This document shows, in pieces, positions 399 to 12,015 of a stretch of 64,000 bases of DNA. Made by a program: the position numbers and the translations under genes. Positions within the stretch are counted from its first letter, which is position 1; each line of letters begins with the position of its first letter. The notes beneath the pieces were generated by a model that was not told where the DNA came from, made no database searches, and was given only the letters and a program-made list of their open reading frames with translations. Source of the stretch: an uncultured delta proteobacterium (GTDB lineage: Bacteria > Desulfobacterota > RBG-13-43-22); NCBI GenBank assembly GCA_963790475.1, contig CAWBOS010000010.1, forward strand, positions 1,856,001-1,920,000, in the 5' to 3' direction.

Positions 399-1610
399 CT
401 AAGTTTCAATGTTTTTTTGGGTCTCCAGCAGTTTTTCATGCTGGAGGGTCAACCGGTAAAGTCGTTCGGATAAGATAACCGCGATATTTTTTATGAGCTT
501 GTAAGGGGCCGTGAGGTTGGCCTCCAACAACTCATTGAACAGGTCCTGGTCGATTTCAATCAACTTGCAGGCCTTAGCCGCGACAACGGTCATGGACCTC
601 GGCACATGAAGCAGGAAGGCCACTTCCCCCAACACCGAACCGCGGCCGATCTTCTGGTGCCAGGAACCCGGTCTTGAATAGTGGCCCCGCCGGACCTCCA
701 CCTCCCCCTCCAAGATCAGGTAGATATTTTCTCCAATAGTCCCTTCCCGGAGGATGACTTCTTCCGGTTCAAATTCAATGGTCTTGGCCGTTTTCAACAG
801 CAAGAATATCTCGGCCGGTTTCAGGCCATGGAAAATCTCAAATTCCTTGGCCTCGTCCCGTTCGGATTGGGTCACTTCCTGAGGTACCAGCCACTGCAAA
901 TAACCGGTACGCTGGTATTTACGGATGCGGTCGGGAAGGACTTCATTCCAATACTTGTTGAAGGTATAGCCCTCGTAATTTTTCTTCAGGGTAGTCCCCG
1001 GATCGATCAGGACGAATTGGGTCGGATCCTTAAACTTTCCCCCCTCACTCAGCACATAAATGTTGTTTGGGCTGACGCTGACTTTGCAATCCGGCCTTTT
1101 TTTGAATAATTCCAGGAGTCGATTTAAAAAATTTTCCAGACCTTCCAGAATCAATTGTTGACTTTTAACCGACAAGTCGTTGAAACGCAGATAGAGGCTG
1201 GTAATGGATTCCCCCTCCACAAACTCCTTGATGCAAAAGCGGCCAAGAGGATCCAGGTGATAAATTCGCGGGACATAAACCTGTTCGGAAAGAAAAAAAT
1301 CCGTAGTCATGGCCTCTTCCAGGAGACGCTCCCGACAGACCGGTTGCTGCTTGGCTACCTTGAGGCACAATGGCCCCGGGGCTTCCGAAAGGGACAGGGA
1401 ATGGGAACGCAGAGGATAGACAATGCCGCGGTCCCCCTCCCCCAGGGGAGGAAGACTGATCCCCAAATGGACCCCGCCATAGGCTTGATCGATTTTCTTA
1501 ATACCGGAGTCGGTGGCCTGCTGCAAGGCATCAAAAAAAATGACCGCCTGTTCTTCCAATTCCGGGGCTTCGATAGATTTAAGGAGTTTCTTATCCAAGG
1601 CCATAGGCAC
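399..1610 (-). CDS. Protein kinase-like (probable pseudokinase) domain fused to C-terminal cyclic-nucleotide-binding domain
   Basis: LGEGDRGIVY Gly-loop, LKVAK, SPNNIY, LIDPG; C-terminal LREGTIGENIYLILEGEVEV...LGEVAFLLHVPRSMTV cNMP signature. Confidence 0.75.
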   Translation of the reverse strand: MPMALDKKLLKSIEAPELEEQAVIFFDALQQATDSGIKKIDQAYGGVHLGISLPPLGEGDRGIVYPLRSHSLSLSEAPGPLCLKVAKQQPVCRERLLEEAMTTDFFLSEQVYVPRIYHLDPLGRFCIKEFVEGESITSLYLRFNDLSVKSQQLILEGLENFLNRLLELFKKRPDCKVSVSPNNIYVLSEGGKFKDPTQFVLIDPGTTLKKNYEGYTFNKYWNEVLPDRIRKYQRTGYLQWLVPQEVTQSERDEAKEFEIFHGLKPAEIFLLLKTAKTIEFEPEEVILREGTIGENIYLILEGEVEVRRGHYSRPGSWHQKIGRGSVLGEVAFLLHVPRSMTVVAAKACKLIEIDQDLFNELLEANLTAPYKLIKNIAVILSERLYRLTLQHEKLLETQKNIET

Positions 1611-1615
1611 CTCTA

Positions 1616-2847
1616 TTAGGATGGATTTTTCATCCCTTCCTCTTTTTCAGCCCGCCAACCCAAAAAAAATACCACCGCTCCCAAAAGAGGGAAAATTCCC
1701 AGCCAGCCAAAAAGAGTACGGGCCGAAACGTTAAAAGAATTGACTAATAAATACACGGCTGCAATAGCCGTCAGTCCGAAAATGCGGCTGCCGAAACTGG
1801 TGGTGGATTTGGCCCTCCCCTGAATGTGGGCATCGGAATAACGATTGATGATGGAATCAATCCCCACCGCCTCGGAGGCCTGGCCGGCCCCCACCATGGC
1901 CCCCACCAGGCAGGCCAGGATTACGTCATTAACCAGGTTGAACCCGAAAAAGGACAACCCGATGACGATCAGGGACACCCCGGTGAGGAAAAAGGTGGAA
2001 CGATAGGCAAAAAAGAAGGGGATCACCAGGGCGGTAACCACGACCTTGCCGGCCGATTGGGCCGATTCGAAATAACCGTAGGCCGACAGACCTTTGGCGA
2101 TATGGGCCAAATAGACCACGGAAAGGACGGAAAAAGAACCGCGGGCCATCGCCACCAGGGATCGACCGATCAATAACAACCGCAAAGGCTTGTTAGCCCA
2201 GGTGTACCGCAGACCCTCTCTTTGACTGGCCCAATAGGACTTTTTGCGGACTTTTTGATAATCGATGACCGATTCCCCGGCCAGGTGAAGCCGGGAGACC
2301 AGAAAGAAAGAAATAAAGAAAAAAAACGGTCCCCATAAGACCGCTATTTTAAACCCCAGCCAGCCGGCCACCAGACTGGCCAGCGCATAACCCGCTGATA
2401 TTGCTGAAATGGTTGGCCGCATCAATCTGGGATAAAACCTTGGTCCCTTCCTTGAACCGGGAAATTGACTTTAACCACCTTGTCCGCCGCTGGCTTAAAA
2501 AAAATAAAGACAAAATCACCTAAAAAAGATAAAACCAGATAAACCGGGTAGGGATATCCCCACAGCACCGCCGCCACCAGGAGCAGGCTTAAAAATGTCC
2601 GCAGCAGATCAGCGGCCATCAGTGAGGTGCGAATGCGCATTTTGTCAATAAAAGGGCCGGATATGGCATTGATGAGGATTTCACAGACATAACGGAAAAC
2701 CAGGACCAGACCGGCGATCATGGGGTCCTTGCTTTTTGAGGCCACCAGCAGAACTGACAGAATGCGTAAGAAGCCGTCCCCGATCCGGGTGAACACCCGG
2801 CTGGAAATCAGAATGATAAAATCTTTCCGGACAGTGGAGGGTTCCAT
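1616..2847 (-). CDS. MFS transporter (DHA3-like), split by frameshifts near 2400-2455
   Basis: ORFs 2422-2892 and 1616-2425 are hydrophobic halves; GPFIDKMRIRTSL resembles MFS motif A; two apparent +1 insertions would restore the frame. Confidence 0.7.
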
Positions 2848-2910
2848 GGGCACTTGTCGATAATGTATAACAAACCCCGAACCGGGAGTCAATACGATAT
2901 ATACGGAAGT

Positions 2911-2967: not shown

Positions 2968-4602
2968 ATGGCCTATCAACTACTGATCACGCCTTCCGTC
3001 GGTAAGCGCTGGACTTACGTCCTGGAAAAAACCTTGGTGAAGATCGGACGGACCAACCACTGCGAGGTGGTCATCAACGATCAATTGGTTTCCCGGGAAC
3101 ATTGCCAGTTGCAGTTGAAGTCCGAGGGACTTTTTTTAGAGGATTTAAACAGCGTTAACGGGACCCTGGTCAACAATCAGCGCATCACCCGGGTCTTGCT
3201 GCATCCCGGAGATAAGATTCGTCTGGGGCTTTCAGATATTCTTTTGGAGGGGTACCAGGAGAAGGAAACTGCCCCGTCTACCCAATTCACCAAGCCCAAA
3301 GAACCCCGGCCGGAGCCGGCGAAAAAACCTGAACCTGGGATTTCAATAGAAAAAAAACCTGAACGCATCCGAGAACCTGCCCCGCTGCAGCCGAAAAGAT
3401 CCGAAATGGGGCAGCCCGACGAATTAAAAAAACCCAGGAAACCCGAGGCTGCTGTTCCCCGAGGTCCTGAGCCCGCTCCTATCCCCTTGGTTTCCAAAAA
3501 CCAGGAACCACCAACCCTCTTGGTCGTCCATCCGGAATGCTCGCAGATTGAACACCTGCTGGCCCCCCTGGCGGCTTCCGGGGTGGTGATCCAACGGACG
3601 TCGGATAGCCGTCAAATCCACTCCATCTTAGAAAAATCCCCGCCGGACTGCATTCTGCTCGGCATTCAAACGGAAGCCACCCTGAATGTCTGCCAGGAAA
3701 TAAAGTCCCGCCCGAACGCTGGTCCAATTGTGTTGTTGATTCAAGAAGAATCCTGGCAGGACCTGTACCCCCTGATCCAAGCCGGGGTGGACGAGGTGCT
3801 TCGCCAACCGGACCCCACTGAATTGCAAGTTCGTCTCCGGAATATGCTGGAACTGCACCGCTTACGAAAGGAAGCTACCTCCTTAAACTCTCAAATGGAA
3901 AAGCGGGTCAGTGCGGATGTATCCGAAGCCGAACGCATCACCCGGCTGAAAAGGTATCTTTCTCCACAGGTAGTGGCCGCGGTCTTATCCGGGGATGAAT
4001 CCCACGTCCTCAAGCCTACCCGTCAGGAGGTGTCCATCGTCTTTTCCGACCTTCGAAACTTTACCCATTTCTCGGAGACCTCTGAACCGGAAGAAATTAT
4101 GGCCATGCTGGGTGACTTCCATGGCCTTTATGGTGAGATTATTTTTCAATATGACGGGACTCTGGAGCGTTTCGCCGGAGACGGGGTCATGGTCTTTTTT
4201 GGGGCCCCGGTCCGTTTTAAAGATCATGCCTCCCGGGCAGTGGCCATGGCCGTGGCCGCCCGGGAACGATTGGTCGACCTGCGCAAGAAATGGAAGAAAT
4301 TAGGCTATGCCCTGGATATTTCATTCGGGATTTCAACCGGATATGTTTTTGTGGGCAATATCGGGTTCGAGGGACGGATGGACTACGCCGCCATTGGGAA
4401 GACCACCAACCTGGCTGCCCGGTTGTGCGCCGCGGCCAAGGGGGGTGAAATTCTGATAAGCCGCAAGACCCTTTTTCAGGTGGAGGACCTGGTGGAGGTG
4501 GAAGAGACCGGAGCCTTGGAAGTGAAAGGCTTCAGCGAACCGGTTATGGCCTATAATGTGCTTCGCCTTAAAGCCCCCTTCACCCCTACCCCTGTTGACT
4601 AA
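2968..4602 (+). CDS. FHA domain + Pro/Glu/Lys linker + degenerate receiver domain + class III adenylate/guanylate cyclase
   Basis: FHA KIGR...VSREH...DLNSVNGT; REC-like PDCILLGI; cyclase FSDLRNFT, ERFAGDG, DYAAIGKTTNLAARL, VKG. Confidence 0.9.
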   Translation: MAYQLLITPSVGKRWTYVLEKTLVKIGRTNHCEVVINDQLVSREHCQLQLKSEGLFLEDLNSVNGTLVNNQRITRVLLHPGDKIRLGLSDILLEGYQEKETAPSTQFTKPKEPRPEPAKKPEPGISIEKKPERIREPAPLQPKRSEMGQPDELKKPRKPEAAVPRGPEPAPIPLVSKNQEPPTLLVVHPECSQIEHLLAPLAASGVVIQRTSDSRQIHSILEKSPPDCILLGIQTEATLNVCQEIKSRPNAGPIVLLIQEESWQDLYPLIQAGVDEVLRQPDPTELQVRLRNMLELHRLRKEATSLNSQMEKRVSADVSEAERITRLKRYLSPQVVAAVLSGDESHVLKPTRQEVSIVFSDLRNFTHFSETSEPEEIMAMLGDFHGLYGEIIFQYDGTLERFAGDGVMVFFGAPVRFKDHASRAVAMAVAARERLVDLRKKWKKLGYALDISFGISTGYVFVGNIGFEGRMDYAAIGKTTNLAARLCAAAKGGEILISRKTLFQVEDLVEVEETGALEVKGFSEPVMAYNVLRLKAPFTPTPVD

Positions 4603-4779
4603 AAAAACCTGACTCTGTTTATCATGCCCCCCATATGGGTCAACCCTGACCGGATGGTCCCTTCGATCAATCCGACGATATCTTCTCTTCTGATTATAAG
4701 AAAACTGCTTGGAATTTTTTTTAAGATCAGGTAATCTATTTTGGGGTCGGATCAATGCATCTCAATAAGGAGGCCCAAA

Positions 4780-5043
4780 TTGAAAAAAGTTACAATCATA
4801 ACCCTAATGTTTATTTTTTTTCTATGTTCAGCCTTTTCTTTTTGTTACGCAACGAGCGATCAAACTCCCGGGAATTCTCTAAAGGGAACTCAGATTGCCG
4901 ACAAGAAGGAGAGACATGAAAAAATTGAAGAGTTGCAAGAAAAGATCAAGCAGTTGAAAGAGGATAAGGAGAAGATAGAAAAAGAAATTCAAGAAAACGA
5001 AAAGGAATTGAGGGAACTTAGACATCATCATCACAAATCCTAA
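4780..5043 (+). CDS. Small secreted coiled-coil protein with HHHH tail
   Basis: AGGAGG RBS then TTG; signal-peptide-like N-terminus; E/K-rich heptads. Confidence 0.6.
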   Translation: MKKVTIITLMFIFFLCSAFSFCYATSDQTPGNSLKGTQIADKKERHEKIEELQEKIKQLKEDKEKIEKEIQENEKELRELRHHHHKS

Positions 5044-5191
5044 GGTTAATTTTCCAAAAGCCGACCCCTTAAACAGGTTGTAAGACCCCAAAATATCCGG
5101 AAACGGTTTTATGTTGGGGGCGTTATCTATATAGACTTTTCCTGCACCGTCATTTATTTTTATTTTGGAGTATTCAGAATAAAATTTACCT

Positions 5192-6705
5192 ATGGCCAAA
5201 CCCATCCCTGTTGATCAAGAAGACATCGGGCTCCATTCTTTCCTGAAGGCCGTTGGGCCTTTTCGAGGTTTATCCGACCGGGAAATCAGCTCGCTGGCCG
5301 CCTTGGCCAAGCGACTGGAATATAGGTGCCGGTGAGTACATCTTTCAGGCCGGAGATCTGGGGGATGCCCTATTCATCATTGAAGAAGGCCTTTGCAGTC
5401 TGGAGATTGCCGGAAGGACGGTCAAACGCCTGAATCCCGGAGACCTCTTTGGTGAGATTGCCGTCATTGATACCCTGCCCCGAACGGCCTCAGTCAGGGC
5501 CGCCCAGACCTGTAGGCTCCTCTGTTTTCAAGCCGGAGATCTGGAAAATGAAAAGAAAATTAATCCATCCAGTTATATTAAAATCCTGAAGGCCTTAGCC
5601 CGTCAGATCACCTCTTATGTCCGTTCCGGGGATGATCTCTACCAGGAGATGGACTGCCTGCTGGTCCAGGACGGTGGTTGTGCTCCGGGATATGACAGCG
5701 TCACCGGTTTCCTGACCTATTTTCTGGAAGAAGCCGGACATCAGGTCTTTATGGCCCGGGAGGGTTTCAAATCCCTGGTCAGCGGCCAGGCCGGGGACTT
5801 TTGCTGTCTGATCAATGACCAGGACCTTTACCAGAAGATGGAAAACCTGCACCTGCCCGGGGTTATTTACACTCCGCCTCTGCGCGAAGCCCGAGGGGCC
5901 AGTTTCCGGACCGAACGCTACCCGGAATTTCTGAAGCCGGAAAATCAAAAATTGGCCTGCCCAAAATCTGATTGCCCGGCGGATTCGTATCTTGATCGGA
6001 ATAGGGGGCAATGGGACCTTCAGCGGCCTCAAGGCCTTAAGTCTGCTCCTGCCGGCTTCCGTCAAGGTTTTTTTTATCCCGGTCACCATTGACAGTGATA
6101 TTTTCGGTACTGAATGTATCGGCGAACATACCGGCGTCCAGGTGGGTTCGGAAAAGATCCTCTCCTATCTGGCCGATGCCCGTACCCACCACCGGATCTA
6201 TATTATCGAGATGATGGGGGCGGAAGGAGGTTATCATGCCCTTCATTCCTGTCTGGGGGCCGGTGCCGATCTGGCGGTCCTGCCCTCTTCCCGTTATGAT
6301 CCCAGCCAGGTGGCCGAAGCCCTCAATCACAAAGTATCGGCGGTTATTGTTGTCGCTGAGGGTTATAAAAGGGAAGAACGTAAAAAGGCCGGATATAAAG
6401 GGAATGCCGCTGAATACTTCCGCGATGAGTTGCAAAAAGCCGGTCTGCGAACCCGGCGACGGGTCGTTTGTGAGGGTTTTTCCAGGGATATCCGGGGGGC
6501 GGCCCCCAACTACCGGGATATTACCCTGTCGCAAAGAATGGCCCGTCAATTGACCCGTCTGCTTCAGGAAGGGAAGAACCAGGTGATGCCGGCGATCCTG
6601 GCCGGGCAGGAATATGCCATCCCCTTTGAGGAAATCCGCACCGATAATTCCGTTGAATCCGGTCTGGCCGACCTATCCAATCGTCTGACAAATAAAGATG
6701 AGTGA
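5192..6705 (+). CDS. cNMP-binding domain fused to divergent 6-phosphofructokinase (PfkA fold); two frameshifts (about 5325, about 5960)
   Basis: ATG 5192 MAKPIPVD...FRGLSDREI; FGEIAVIDTLPRTASV; PFK motifs DGGCAPG, GIGGNGT, PVTIDSDI, EMMG, VVAEG. Confidence 0.8.
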
Positions 6706-6829
6706 TAAGGCCTAACCCCATTCATGCTACCGCTGGTTTTCAGGTGATTAGACCAGGACCTCCCGTCCCTCCGGTTCATAAGGATGGATTGGTCCGGGGG
6801 AACATTTGATTTGAGAAAGGCTGATATAC

Positions 6830-7642
6830 ATGAAAAAAAGAATTTTACTCATTCCTTGGTTTTTATTACTGAACCTCTTTTTATGGTCCTCCTCGGTCTG
6901 GGCGGTCCCCTTATCTTTGGATCAAAACATCAAAGCCATTTTGGCCAAGCAGGAAGGTTCAGGTCAAGGGTTTGATTTTGTGGTCATCGGTGATAACCGG
7001 GATGGAGCGGAAGTATATAATCGATTATTAAATCATGCCAAGGCCTTTAAGCCTTTTTTTATCCTCAACACGGGGGATTTTGTCCGGGAAGGACAGGTCT
7101 TTGAATATGAAAATTATATAAAGCAGATCGCTCCGTTTGATATCCCCATCCTGCATCTCCCGGGAAACCATGACGTCCGTTATGGATCGGAAACCTATCG
7201 TAAATACGTAGGGGAGCTTAATTGGGTATTTGACCTGAGTGGTTTTCGCATTATCGGCCTTGATAATGCCACGGGAAAATTCACCGAGGAGACAGTGGCC
7301 TTCGCCCGGGAAAACCTGACCAGCCAAAAACCCTGCCTGGTGGCCTTCCATATACCCCCGGCCATCGGGCGGTGGACTGTGCATGCCATGATCGATGACC
7401 AAAAGGGAGGGCATGGCGGCGAGGTGATGGATTTAATCAAAGGAGCTAAAGTGCCCATGGTTTTTATGGGACATATTCATCTCTATGACGAAATGGACAT
7501 CGCCGGCACTAAATATGTTATCAGCGCCGGGGGAGGGGCAAGGCTTTACGGTAAATATAATTTCGGAAAACCGGAGTTCGGTTTTGTCCTGGTCCGGGTA
7601 AGACCCACGGGGATTACCCATCAATGGGTACCCCTGGATTAA
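6830..7642 (+). CDS. Secreted calcineurin-like metallophosphoesterase
   Basis: Signal peptide; GDNR, TGDFV, PGNHD, GHIH motifs. Confidence 0.85.
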   Translation: MKKRILLIPWFLLLNLFLWSSSVWAVPLSLDQNIKAILAKQEGSGQGFDFVVIGDNRDGAEVYNRLLNHAKAFKPFFILNTGDFVREGQVFEYENYIKQIAPFDIPILHLPGNHDVRYGSETYRKYVGELNWVFDLSGFRIIGLDNATGKFTEETVAFARENLTSQKPCLVAFHIPPAIGRWTVHAMIDDQKGGHGGEVMDLIKGAKVPMVFMGHIHLYDEMDIAGTKYVISAGGGARLYGKYNFGKPEFGFVLVRVRPTGITHQWVPLD

Positions 7643-7663: not shown

Positions 7664-8198
7664 TTATTTGGGAATACTTATCTTCCGGGTAAATATCCAA
7701 TTGTCCGCCAAAAGATGACAGCCGTTACAATTGGCAAAGGACCCTATTGATTTCTTTTGAAAAACATCGGAAGATATTTTTCGGTGCTTTTTCAGGATGT
7801 AAGGAATCTCGGTAATGCGTAAGGGGCATATTGCTTCCGAGGCTTTCCATTATTTTCTGTGGTATTTTAGAGTTGGAACTTTCAGCCCCGTTCTCTTTAA
7901 GATAAAGGGCGATAAGGTTTTTAGTTTTTTGGTCTATCTCCAGAGTTCCTCCGAAATGTTTTTCCGTCGAACCTAACAGCTTTTCCCAGGAACCGGAAGG
8001 TAAAAATTCGGGCGGATAGGGCATATGGCATTGTCCGCATGTCTTCTTATAAGTCGAGGCCGGATCAATCCCAGAACTCAGCGCTTCTTTTGTCCCATTT
8101 GGACTGACCTGATTTCCGGTTGCACTTAAACAGGCCGAACTACCCATTAACACAGCCAGGAACAACAGCACAAAAAATGATTTTTCAGGAATGGTCAT
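7664..8198 (-). CDS. Diheme cytochrome c (DHC), frameshifted near 7825
   Basis: CGQCH...YPPEFLPSGSW...HFG; removing one base from a CCCC run gives LRITEIPY...KH...SFANCNGCH and a stop at 7664. Confidence 0.8.
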
Positions 8199-8349: not shown

Positions 8350-8378
8350 TTGACCCCTCGCCGGGCTTCTTTTATACT
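8350..8378 (+). promoter_or_regulatory. Sigma70-type promoter (copy 1 of a repeated promoter module)
   Basis: TTGACC-17-TATACT. Confidence 0.55.
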
Positions 8379-8544
8379 CTTTTCATCAAAAAAACATCGA
8401 AGTCCGGGGTCAGTCCTTTCCGCAGTAGACAGGACATTCCTTGTCCCGAATCCGTTGCCTGATCGGGGATTCGGCAACATACCGGACTTTACCCGGACAG
8501 GGGGCGGGGGAAAAGTCCGTCTAAACCCATACCTAATAACGACC

Positions 8545-9315
8545 ATGAAAAATAGAAAAATCAACATTGATTTGCTTTTCCTCGGCTCGGGCAATGCCTT
8601 CGCCCCAGGACGGGCCTATGGAAGTTTCCTGGTAGATGAGCGGATTCTTTTCGAAGCCACCCCTACCACTTTACCGGCCCTCAAGGAACTAAACATACCT
8701 CTGGAGGATATCCAGTACATCTTCATCAGCCATTTTCACGGCGATCATTGCTTCGGACTGCCCTTTATCTTCCTCGATCATTATTTTATCACCAAGCGAA
8801 AAAAGCCCTTGACGATCATCGGCCCGAAAGGCCTTAAGAAACTCTCTTATACCCTCATAGACCTGGCCTTCCCCGACACCCGGAAGCGTTATTCCCGGAA
8901 ATTTCCGTTGAAAATTTTAGAGGTAAGCCCCGGCAAAGAATACTCCCTCAAGACAATGACTTTCAAGGTTTTTAAAATGTCTCATGGAAAGACATACAAC
9001 CTGGGGTTCAGTCTGACTTATAAGAAAAAACGGCTGTTCTATTCCGGCGACACGGGGCCAAGTCCTTCCCTGTTGGAACTCCTACAGGGCGCGAATATCG
9101 TTGTTTTAGAAATGACCTCCATTGACGACGATTACCCCTTCCATCTCAACCAGGAAAATATTTTGGAAATCAGAAAGCAGCTCCCACCTGAGACCCGATT
9201 GATCCTCACCCACCTCCCGGCCTTTACCAGGAAACAGGCGAAGGCCCTGGAACAGAATCCTTATGGAGTCCTTCTACCGGCCGAGGATAGGCGGCGCTAT
9301 AAATTCAATCTGTAA
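8545..9315 (+). CDS. Metallo-beta-lactamase-fold hydrolase, RNase Z/phosphodiesterase-like
   Basis: FLGSG, SHFHGDH, YSGDTG, LTH; likely start ATG 8545. Confidence 0.85.
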   Translation: MKNRKINIDLLFLGSGNAFAPGRAYGSFLVDERILFEATPTTLPALKELNIPLEDIQYIFISHFHGDHCFGLPFIFLDHYFITKRKKPLTIIGPKGLKKLSYTLIDLAFPDTRKRYSRKFPLKILEVSPGKEYSLKTMTFKVFKMSHGKTYNLGFSLTYKKKRLFYSGDTGPSPSLLELLQGANIVVLEMTSIDDDYPFHLNQENILEIRKQLPPETRLILTHLPAFTRKQAKALEQNPYGVLLPAEDRRRYKFNL

Positions 9316-9501: not shown

Positions 9502-12015
9502 ATGGAACAAAATCCTAATTACCCCAGCCCCACTGGCCAATCCGAACCCGAGGACATCCGTTCCGGGCTCCGCCCGGAGACAATTGCCAAGGCCTTTAAT
9601 GATAATCTGGCCTATCTCTGCGCCCGGTTTCCTGAAGTGGCTACCCGTAACGACCGATACCTGGCCCTGGCCTACACCGTCCGCGACCGCCTTTTACACC
9701 GCTGGACCAACACCGCCCGTACTTACTATCAAATGCGCAGCCGATCGGTGTGTTACCTCTCGGCCGAATTTTTGATGGGACCCCAATTGGGCAACAATCT
9801 GATCAACCTGGGCATTTTTGACCAAGTACGGGAAGCCATGCAGCAATTAGGTCTGGATCTGGACGACTTGCTGGAGCAGGAGGAGGAACCCGGGTTGGGC
9901 AACGGCGGTCTGGGCCGTCTGGCGGCCTGCTATCTGGATTCCCTGGCGACTCAGCAGATCCCTGCCATCGGTTACGGCATCCGTTATGAATTCGGTATTT
10001 TCGACCAGGCCCTTCGGGACGGCTGGCAGGTGGAACTTACCGACAAATGGCTGCGTCTGGGAAATCCCTGGGAAATCGCCCGGCCGGAAATCGTCTTTGA
10101 TGTCCAACTGGGCGGTCACACCGAGACCTATTTTGAAGACGGCCGGCAGCGTGTTCGCTGGATTCCCGATCGCGTCGTCCGGGGAATGGCCTATGACACG
10201 CCCGTGCTCGGCTACGGCGGAAACACCGTGAATCTGCTGCGCCTGTGGAAAGCCGAGGCAGCAGAGTCCTTCGACTTTCAGGCCTTCAACACCGGGGATT
10301 ATTACGGGGCGGTCATGGAAAAAGTGACCTCGGAGAACATCACCAAGGTATTGTACCCCAATGATGAAACGATTCAGGGCAAACAACTCCGTCTCCAACA
10401 GCAATACTTTTTCGCCTCCTGCGCCATGCAGGATATGATCCGCATGTTTCTTCAACAGTCCGGTTCCCTGGACCATTTGCACGAGAAATTCGTGGTGCAA
10501 CTCAACGATACGCACCCCGCCATCGCCGTGGCCGAACTCATGCGCCTATTGGTCGACGAGCATACCCTGCCCTGGGATCAGGCCTGGCAGATCACCCAGA
10601 ACACCTTCGGTTACACCAATCATACCTTGTTGCCTGAAGCGCTGGAGCGCTGGCCCATCCCTCTCTTTGCCGGTTTGCTGCCGCGCCACCTTGAAATCAT
10701 CTTTGAAATCAACCAGCGATTTTTGGACGAAATCCGGCTCCGCTATCCCAATGACGACGCCCGGGTCGCCCGCATGTCGCTCATCGACGAACAAGGACCG
10801 CGTTATGTGCGCATGGCCAACCTGGCCTGCGTAGGCAGCCAGAACATCAACGGAGTAGCCAAGCTACACACGGACCTGCTCAAATCCGGTGTTCTGCACG
10901 ACTTTGTAGACTTTTCACCGGAAAAATTCACCAATGTAACCAACGGCGTTACTCCCAGGCGTTTTCTGCTGCTCAGCAACCCCGGTCTTGCCGGGCTTAT
11001 CACCCGCCGAATCGGAAACCAGTGGATCAAAAACCTCGACGAACTCCAGCGTCTTGAGGGGGCCGTAGAGGACCCCGCCTTTCGAAGAGAATGGAGGGAA
11101 ATCAAACTCCGGAACAAACAGGTCCTGGCCGCTCTGTTCTTGCGCCTTGCCGGCCTGACCGTCAATCCCGACACCCTGTTCGACATCCAAGCCAAACGGA
11201 TCCACGAATACAAACGGCAACACCTGAACCTCCTGCACATCGTTACCCTCTATAACCGGTTACGTCAGAAACCGGAGGTCGACTTTGTTCCGCGCACCTT
11301 CATTTTCAGCGGCAAGGCCGCACCCGGCTACCACATGGCCAAGCTCATCATCAAATTGATCAATTCCGTGGCCGCCGTGGTCAATCAGGACCCGGTGACC
11401 GAAGGCCGATTGAAGGTCGCCTTCTTGCCGAACTTCAATGTCAAGAACGCGCAACGGGTTTATCCGGCGGCCGACCTTTCCGAGCAGATATCCACCGCCG
11501 GGATGGAGGCCTCCGGCACCGGCAACATGAAGTTTTCCATGAATGGGGCCCTCACCATCGGTACTCTGGATGGTGCGAATATCGAAATCCGCAACGAGGT
11601 AGGCCCTGAAAACTTCTTCCTCTTCGGCTTGACCGCCGACCAGGTGCAGGCAGTTAAATCTCTTGGTTACCATCCCCGCGGCTATTATGAGGCGGATCCT
11701 GAACTTAAGGAGGCACTCGACCTGATCGCCTCCGGACACTTTTCCCCCGAAAATCCGGATTTGTTCCTTCCGCTGGTGAATACCCTCCTGAGCCAAGACG
11801 AATACATGGTCCTGGCCGATTACCGGTCTTACCTCGACTGCCAGGAAAAGGTTGCCCAAGCCTATCAGGACCGGGAGAACTGGACGCGCATGTCCATCCT
11901 CAATGTTGCCCGCATGGGATTCTTTTCCTCTGACCGGTCCATCCGGGAATATTGCCAGCGTATCTGGAAGACCTCACCGGTTTCCATAAAACTGGGGGAC
12001 TCAAAAACCGGTTGA
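9502..12015 (+). CDS. glgP: Glycogen/alpha-glucan phosphorylase
   Basis: LGNGGLGRLAAC, QLNDTHP, KRIHEYKRQ, EASGTGNMK PLP motif; 837 aa. Confidence 0.97.
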   Translation: MEQNPNYPSPTGQSEPEDIRSGLRPETIAKAFNDNLAYLCARFPEVATRNDRYLALAYTVRDRLLHRWTNTARTYYQMRSRSVCYLSAEFLMGPQLGNNLINLGIFDQVREAMQQLGLDLDDLLEQEEEPGLGNGGLGRLAACYLDSLATQQIPAIGYGIRYEFGIFDQALRDGWQVELTDKWLRLGNPWEIARPEIVFDVQLGGHTETYFEDGRQRVRWIPDRVVRGMAYDTPVLGYGGNTVNLLRLWKAEAAESFDFQAFNTGDYYGAVMEKVTSENITKVLYPNDETIQGKQLRLQQQYFFASCAMQDMIRMFLQQSGSLDHLHEKFVVQLNDTHPAIAVAELMRLLVDEHTLPWDQAWQITQNTFGYTNHTLLPEALERWPIPLFAGLLPRHLEIIFEINQRFLDEIRLRYPNDDARVARMSLIDEQGPRYVRMANLACVGSQNINGVAKLHTDLLKSGVLHDFVDFSPEKFTNVTNGVTPRRFLLLSNPGLAGLITRRIGNQWIKNLDELQRLEGAVEDPAFRREWREIKLRNKQVLAALFLRLAGLTVNPDTLFDIQAKRIHEYKRQHLNLLHIVTLYNRLRQKPEVDFVPRTFIFSGKAAPGYHMAKLIIKLINSVAAVVNQDPVTEGRLKVAFLPNFNVKNAQRVYPAADLSEQISTAGMEASGTGNMKFSMNGALTIGTLDGANIEIRNEVGPENFFLFGLTADQVQAVKSLGYHPRGYYEADPELKEALDLIASGHFSPENPDLFLPLVNTLLSQDEYMVLADYRSYLDCQEKVAQAYQDRENWTRMSILNVARMGFFSSDRSIREYCQRIWKTSPVSIKLGDSKTG

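Follow-up and report, generated by a model that had tools for sequence, protein, structure and literature searches.

What does a bacterial locus encode when two recognizable domains are spread over three reading frames, and is such a locus still a gene? This question is raised by positions 5192-6705 (forward strand) of the window, i.e., the whole stretch of 64,000 nucleotides (nt) of uncultured delta proteobacterium DNA (contig CAWBOS010000010.1) analyzed in this study. Three overlapping open reading frames (ORFs) lie here head to tail in frames 2, 0, and 1, each step being a +1 shift in the ORF list. The region is confirmed as one gene, which encodes an N-terminal cyclic nucleotide-binding (CNB) domain, a linker helix, and a divergent catalytic core with a phosphofructokinase (PFK) fold. 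Its ORFs, and the pieces from which the protein is read, are as follows:

5192-5335, forward strand: ORF a, frame 2
5253-6092, forward strand: ORF b, frame 0
5992-6705, forward strand: ORF c, frame 1
5192-5326, forward strand: piece 1, frame 2, with the start codon and first 45 codons, covering the N-terminal helix of the CNB domain
5328-5957, forward strand: piece 2, frame 0, with the remaining CNB domain, the linker helix, and the first (N-terminal) third of the PFK-like core (QDGGCAPGY, FRTERY)
5959-6705, forward strand: piece 3, frame 1, with the remaining PFK-like core (GIGGNGT, PVTIDSD, EMMGA, VVAEGY, FSRDIRG) and the stop codon

The read-through product of the gene would have 503 amino acids (aa). 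An intact 500-aa database protein (P0002) is tiled end to end by the three pieces, with nothing missing, at identities of 93% (piece 1, residues 1-45 of P0002), 98% (piece 2, residues 46-254), and 97% (piece 3, residues 254-499). The middle ORF matches the Pfam family cNMP_binding (PF00027) with 62 bits (cut-off 27.5, E = 5.3e-17), and the last piece matches PFK (PF00365) over model positions 84-276 of 277 with 120.7 bits (cut-off 30.9, E = 9.5e-35). This tiling and these Pfam matches bear out the original prediction, which had joined three frames into a protein of about 500 aa with a cyclic nucleoside monophosphate (cNMP) domain fused to a PfkA fold. The phosphate-binding cassette of the cNMP domain is translated from piece 2 as FGEIAVIDTLPRTASV; its signature Gly-Glu...Arg-Thr is intact, Gly-Glu and Arg-(Thr/Ser/Ala) being what we take to be the signature of the CNB cassette. 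The best PDB sequence matches of the CNB part are CNB domains of PKG (E = 1.6e-25), a likeness that does not decide between cyclic AMP (cAMP) and cyclic GMP (cGMP) as the probable ligand. The PFK-core motifs in the translation are IGIGGNGTF, PVTIDSDIF, and EMMGAEGG. They include the predicted replacements of GGDGS by GGNGT and of TIDND by TIDSD, the latter with the catalytic Asp kept.

How the frame breaks arose can be approached at the DNA level, where the window departs from its orthologs at three sites:

5325-5327, forward strand: frame break 1, a single surplus base in AGGT, the exact letter being ambiguous (alignment column 136, AGGTGCC versus AAG-GCC)
5845-5856, forward strand: in-frame tandem duplication of ACCTGC (two copies), adding Leu-His (MENLHLPGV versus MENLPGV)
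5956-5959, forward strand: frame break 2, a single surplus base in CCTG, the exact letter being ambiguous (alignment column 765)

In an alignment with three close orthologs, the window alone has both extra bases and the 6-nt duplication. The orthologs are intact, with 500 aa in G012, about 500 aa in G004 (counted from a conserved MAKP start), and 497 aa in G016; a further ortholog, in G026, is also intact, with 487 aa and a receiver-like N-terminus. The orthologs stand at 77-93% protein identity. Public contigs from four runs (X1, X2, X4, and X8), representing relatives or a near-identical strain, were compared over positions 5100-6800. At site 1 (5325/5326) the extra base is missing from five of five contigs (four of four runs), the closest of which is only about 90% identical, so that this site is judged from relatives alone. 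At site 2 it is missing from five of five contigs from three of the four runs. Among them is an X1 contig spanning 5724-6002, which shows only four other differences in 278 nt (98.6% identical) and keeps the duplication. The 6-nt duplication is missing from the contigs of X2, X4, and X8; it is strain-specific and real, because it is common to the window and the independent X1 contig.

When the two gap columns are dropped, the window gene contains no stop in 498 codons. The ratio dN/dS is 0.082-0.119 for pairs that include the window versus 0.096-0.128 among the intact orthologs, and branch-specific synonymous and non-synonymous codon changes number 47:10 for the window, 69:20 for G004, and 55:13 for G012. 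The gene shows no sign of relaxed selection.

The assembly itself was assessed by matching stop-to-stop ORFs of at least 150 aa from the 276-kb contig C38 of G004 to the window genome (G000). There are 305 such ORFs, some possibly in non-coding frames, and 172 of them have G000 matches at 65% identity or more. Frame changes in G000 occur at 11 places in nine of the 172 ORFs, and one frame-broken G000 gene carries two shifts 570 nt apart. Blastn showed one surplus base in G000, not in a homopolymer, at most of these places (overall 9 to 10 insertions, two deletions, and one complex change). In the reverse comparison (G000 ORFs on G004), 14 of 118 ORFs changed frame, with 15 changes among them; since several of these only reproduce breaks of G000 itself, the comparison does not serve as a clean estimate for G004. 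Both assemblies seem to carry indel errors. Along about 1.757-1.939 Mb of G000 contig C10, at least nine conserved genes have broken frames where the ORFs of G004 are intact. Within the window, two ORFs of 269 and 156 aa with a weak MFS_1 match (1616-2892, reverse strand) correspond to one 444-aa ORF in G004; this MFS-like gene is broken by single extra bases near 2390 and 2458.

Such 1-nt insertions, scattered over otherwise conserved genes, have the look of consensus errors. We consider it probable that the two frame breaks are single-base consensus errors of the assembly and that the gene is intact in the organism; it should be annotated as intact or low-quality, not as a pseudogene. Real frameshifts, which would make the locus a very recent pseudogene of this strain or leave only an N-terminal fragment of about 47 aa to be made, appear unlikely. 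Such an origin would agree with the presence of both extra bases in the assembly as given, with the strain-specific duplication that the window also carries, and with the accessory nature of the gene, which has strong matches in only four of 40 related genomes and two of 13 other genomes of the same genus; its loss would also be tolerable, since canonical PFKs are present. However, the gene has not decayed further at its codons, the window branch equals the intact orthologs in dN/dS and in its ratio of synonymous to non-synonymous changes, the near-identical X1 contig lacks the site-2 base, and similar 1-nt insertions along the contig fit an error process better than dozens of fresh pseudogenes. 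Programmed frame changes, by +1 ribosomal frameshifting or other recoding, would let the gene be expressed as written, and both shifts are indeed +1 and stand just ahead of a GCC codon; even so, we find this account barely credible, given that comparable insertions in other genes of the contig have unrelated contexts and that the orthologs, which show no vestige of a shift site, read the same residues in one uninterrupted frame. TGCC also occurs in frame at Met-Asp-Cys-Leu (5650s), where no shift is needed, and together with the single-frame orthologs this leads us to reject a programmed frameshift or quadruplet reading at TGCC. The two +1 shifts that the original prediction had placed at about 5325 and 5960 are thus present in the assembly, and as a biological feature of the gene they do not hold up.

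With the gene taken as intact, the next question is how widespread its architecture may be. A search for proteins combining cNMP_binding and PFK, which the original prediction had proposed, revealed intact fused homologs in large numbers. Using the G012 ortholog as query, 589 matches at E ≤ 1e-3 were obtained among 8000 scored candidates, and PF00365 and PF00027 occur together in 119 of the 120 best homologs (about 454-547 aa). The names of these homologs are automatic only, either "6-phosphofructokinase" or "cyclic nucleotide-binding domain-containing protein." Relatives are encoded at 127 loci in contigs representing one genome per species, named for Thermodesulfobacteriota/Deltaproteobacteria, Calditrichota, Bacteroidota and Chlorobi-like lineages, Leptospiraceae, Xenobia, Planctomycetota, and others. 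Among 40 loci selected mainly for matches without the N-terminus, 28 encode Response_reg plus PFK, nine cNMP_binding plus PFK, and three PFK only; because the core is fused to either a receiver or a cNMP domain, it appears to serve as an output module for two kinds of sensor. Forty full-length family members match PF00365 with 137-176 bits.

An exhaustive search of 1.84 billion representatives returned only 29 sequences at E ≤ 1e-30. Full-length fused members scored 1e-91 to 1e-122, an unfused sister group of about 375 aa (P0132, P0134, P0137, P0140, and P0142) scored 1e-44 to 1e-54, and canonical PFKs scored about 1e-20. The fused proteins form a large, sharply separate, uncharacterized clade of PFK paralogs. 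One member of the sister clade, P0141, carries a C-terminal fusion to DUF547 and a VTT membrane domain. The Gly-Glu...Arg cassette is found by alignment in 36 of 79 family proteins, the others being receiver-type, degenerate, or misaligned. Canonical PFKs are also encoded in this genome (two) and in five of five other genomes tested (1-4 further PFK-family genes each), which rules out the idea that the fusion is the only PFK of its genome. In the family alignment, one of the genome's own PFKs (G000:C13:392118-393107, L014) has Asp at position 104 and Lys at 124, the pair characteristic of PPi-dependent enzymes. Full-text literature searches, with subscription journals outside their coverage, did not bring up any report of a PFK fused to a cNMP or receiver domain.

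Whether the core could be an active kinase was examined from its predicted fold and its conserved residues. The AlphaFold model of a 93%-identical ortholog (pLDDT 88.4, pTM 0.80, 33-row alignment) has its linker helix at residues 125-142. Its top PDB matches by Foldseek are all PFKs, the best being S. aureus 5xz8 (E = 1.4e-24, TM 0.88 of target, 24% identity), and PPi-PFKs rank after the bacterial ATP-PFKs among these structural matches. Residues are numbered hereafter from HMMER alignments to B. stearothermophilus and L. delbrueckii PFK, and counts refer to 79 aligned family proteins. The equivalents of Gly10/Gly11, Arg72, Gly104, Thr125, Asp127, Asp129, Arg162, Met169, Gly170, Glu222, and Arg252 are invariant (79/79), including Asp127, which we take to be the catalytic base. 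Among the residues that we assume to bind the fructose-6-phosphate (F6P) phosphate group, the equivalents of Arg162 (Arg332) and Arg252 (Arg432) are kept in all 79 proteins, and that of Arg243 (position 421) is Arg in 48 and Lys in 31.

Other positions are consistently replaced. Asp12 has become Cys and Asn128 has become Ser (TIDSD) in 79/79, Gly124 is Val in 78/79, and His249, a 6-phosphate ligand, is Phe in 78/79. Asp103 of the GGDGS loop, presumably an Mg2+ ligand in PFK, is Asn in 62/79, as in the GGNGT of the window, and is kept in 17/79. Arg171 is Ala in 74/79 and Arg in four. Regarding the change of MGR to MGA, the original prediction was correct about the replacement itself; its suggestion that the substrate Arg is lost does not apply to the site as a whole, where Arg72, Arg162, and Arg252 are invariant and Arg243 is Arg or Lys. 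The family also has an invariant Arg at the Tyr69 position and a two-residue Ser-Arg insertion ahead of the Arg252 equivalent, the Arg of which (Arg429) is invariant. Asp104 and Lys124 are, by our assumption, determinants of PPi use and Gly104 is ATP-type; the PPi-type pair is not found in the family, position 104 being Gly in 79/79 and position 124 Val in 78/79. All eight NCBIfam PFK models that match score below their cut-offs (TIGR02482 PFKA_ATP, 109.5 bits versus 371.35). From the alignment, the residue pattern points to a remodeled, strongly constrained site rather than a decayed one.

Arg21, Arg25, and Arg154, which we take to form the allosteric ADP/PEP site, are lost here: Arg21 is replaced by Ala or Gly (72/7), Arg25 is variable (Glu 37, Tyr 23, others), and Arg154 is replaced by Met or Leu (68/11). 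The classical ADP/PEP effector site has thus disappeared, with an N-terminal CNB or receiver sensor in its place. The core passed a homodimer prediction with a score of 0.44 (best of three controls 0.00); 20 of 30 proteins whose structures were solved as pairs attain this mark, compared with one of 23 solved as single chains. Resemblance to PFK oligomers of known structure may account for the pass. At least 88% of contacts are common to the runs, partner pLDDT is at least 85, and the predicted interface takes in residues 176, 324, and 379, which are the effector-site positions.

Our best reading of these features, in line with the cNMP-gated kinase suggested by the original prediction, is a second-messenger-gated sugar-phosphate kinase. 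Its architecture, fold, and conserved residues are shown, as are the intact orthologs; its activity, donor, substrate, ligand, and direction of regulation are inferred. Because the CNB cassette is canonical, the CNB domain is likely to bind a cNMP, possibly one produced by the neighboring cyclase described below. The bound domain would act through the linker helix (residues 125-142) on a PFK-like dimer or tetramer that has no metabolite effector site, and the core, once switched, would transfer phosphate from ATP to a sugar phosphate. The catalytic apparatus argues for ATP-dependent phosphorylation of a phospho-sugar, with F6P as the default guess. A related phospho-sugar may be the substrate instead, given the systematic replacement of Arg171, His249, and Asp103 and the insertion of a further invariant Arg. 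We consider it rather likely that this explanation holds as a whole, i.e., an intact gene with assembly errors that encodes a cNMP-switched PFK-like sugar-phosphate kinase.

Several points weigh against it. The compared contigs stem from relatives or a near-identical strain, and the breaks may be a real strain-specific double frameshift; two breaks in 1.5 kb also exceed the average of about one per 13 kb of aligned coding sequence. The fusion is an extra paralog that is not needed for ordinary glycolysis, and its gene neighborhood is mostly not conserved beyond close relatives. The changes of Asp103 to Asn and Arg171 to Ala, and a score far below the ATP-PFK equivalog cut-off, suggest that F6P kinase activity should not be assumed. 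These same replacements, with that of His249, the scores far below every NCBIfam PFK cut-off, and the canonical PFKs alongside in all six genomes examined would also suit a non-catalytic pseudoenzyme, in which the PFK-like core would be a binding or scaffold module under cNMP or phosphorelay control that senses a sugar phosphate or a nucleotide. We judge this improbable. The equivalents of Asp127, Asp129, Thr125, Arg72, and Glu222 and both glycine-rich nucleotide loops are invariant in 79/79, and pseudoenzymes usually lose exactly such catalytic residues; moreover, 17 of 79 proteins keep Asp at 103, so Asn and Asp look interchangeable there.

If the kinase is gated by a second messenger, its genomic surroundings may hold the partners. 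The genes around it are as follows:

399-1610, reverse strand: 403-aa protein with a C-terminal cNMP_binding domain (6.4e-17), the first ~270 residues having no Pfam match
1616-2892, reverse strand: MFS-like gene, broken (weak MFS_1)
2968-4602, forward strand: FHA, receiver-like, and class III cyclase (Guanylate_cyc) domains by Pfam, ending 590 nt upstream of the fusion gene
4741-5043, forward strand: small ORF of 100 aa between the cyclase and the fusion gene
5192-6705, forward strand: fusion gene (cNMP_binding + PFK)
6830-7642, forward strand: calcineurin-like metallophosphoesterase (Pfam Metallophos) with a signal peptide, the same neighbor being present in G004 and G012
7725-8198, reverse strand: dihaem cytochrome c
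8350-9315, forward strand: MBL-fold protein, matching a model of cyclic-nucleotide-degrading phosphodiesterase with 49.3 bits (cut-off 400)
9502-12015, forward strand: glycogen phosphorylase (1111 bits to Pfam Phosphorylase), separated by 2.8 kb from the fusion gene upstream of it

The class III cyclase gene stands where the original prediction had seen it, about 0.6 kb upstream. Its motif reads ERFAGDG by eye, with Arg at the substrate-specifying position; taking K/E-x-x-G-D as the cyclase motif with the substrate-specifying Lys/Glu, this fits neither the adenylate nor the guanylate pattern. The 403-aa protein is a second putative cNMP receptor adjoining the cyclase and is syntenic in G004. 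The metallophosphoesterase has a weak match to 3',5'-cAMP phosphodiesterase (29.6 bits versus a cut-off of 225), and together with the MBL-fold protein it is a possible candidate for cNMP turnover. The small ORF encodes a hydrophobic N-terminus, a coiled-coil-like stretch rich in Lys and Glu, and HHHH at the C-terminus, with only weak sub-cut-off coiled-coil Pfam matches. An Rfam scan of 4400-7000 gave only three sub-threshold chance matches, and the promoter and terminator scan was at background (three found versus 2.1 expected, and one versus 3.8).

The arrangement of all these genes is syntenic in G004 (L017), including the cyclase, which lies at a contig edge in G012. Among the immediate neighbors of 37 cNMP-type loci, a cyclase occurs in four and sugar, glycogen, or PPDK-type genes occur in nine, the rest being varied or without a Pfam match. 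By tblastn over 80 loci, a cyclase lies within 6 kb in seven and glycogen phosphorylase in two; the metallophosphoesterase, the MBL-fold protein, the dihaem cytochrome c, and the 403-aa cNMP protein gave none beyond syntenic close relatives. Because the tblastn partners are mostly limited to close relatives, the idea of a cNMP/glycogen module rests on one lineage and a few independent cases. In the Calditrichales locus L052, the gene directly upstream of the fusion encodes a phosphorylase, and in L022 this place is taken by a GH77 glucanotransferase.

Tentatively, and with less confidence than for the kinase itself, we suggest a broader reading. A PFK paralog found in many phyla may have exchanged its metabolite-allosteric site for cNMP or receiver input, so that signaling would act from protein to protein and directly switch a committed step of sugar-phosphate catabolism without transcription, with a substrate that is perhaps not F6P. 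In this organism, it might be part of a local cNMP-glycogen module within 12 kb, formed by the FHA-receiver cyclase, the second cNMP-binding protein, two candidate phosphodiesterases, and glycogen phosphorylase. If true, this module would parallel, in bacteria, the control of glycogen use by cAMP; the family would show a second messenger acting directly on bacterial central carbon flux and would provide a concrete enzymatic output for cNMP signaling in Thermodesulfobacteriota, Calditrichota, Chlorobi-like, and other uncultured groups. PFK is a classic example of metabolite allostery, and here a widespread clade is without that control site and has a cNMP or receiver domain fused instead. The automatic label "6-phosphofructokinase" may err on the substrate and surely misses the regulation.

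Compared with known systems, the core is closest in fold to the bacterial ATP-PFK PfkA (B. stearothermophilus 3PFK/4PFK, E. coli 1PFK, S. aureus 5XZ8), with which it shares PF00365, a predicted PFK-like homodimer interface, and the equivalents of Asp127, Asp129, Thr125, Arg72, Arg162, Arg243 (Arg/Lys), Arg252, Glu222, and Gly104. It differs in its identity of only 21-25%, in the additional N-terminal sensor domain of about 150 aa, and in the absence of the effector-site residues Arg21, Arg25, and Arg154. PPi-PFKs have the fold in common, and those of T. vaginalis and Prometheoarchaeum match structurally at E of about 1e-21 to 1e-18, whereas the fusion family has Gly/Val where PPi-PFKs presumably have Asp104/Lys124. 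The unfused sister clade is 33-37% identical to the core and shares DGG.APGY, FRSERY, GGN/DGT, EMMG, AEGY, and FSR..RG; it differs in having no N-terminal sensor and in Arg or Asn at the Arg171 position, and it is also uncharacterized.

For the arrangement of sensor and enzyme, the mycobacterial acetyltransferase Pat/KATmt offers a parallel: an N-terminal CNB domain, a linker, and a catalytic domain in one polypeptide, the output being GNAT in Pat versus PFK here. Pat/KATmt is autoinhibited and is released by cAMP. By analogy, it may serve as a model for CNB gating of an enzyme; the CNB part of an ortholog has a weak match to NF058543 "acetyltransferase Pat" (E = 2.3e-6). A glycolytic-enzyme fold likewise combined with cNMP_binding has been described for a phosphoglycerate kinase (PGK)-like protein of Trypanosoma brucei (PMC4106842), and the same paper states that Pfam in 2014 listed no cNMP fusions with glycolytic enzymes (PMC4106842). 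The enzyme, the domain order, and the kingdom differ between the two cases. According to that paper, both domains of the T. brucei protein are degenerate and miss key ligand residues (PMC4106842), whereas here the CNB cassette is preserved, as are the catalytic residues.

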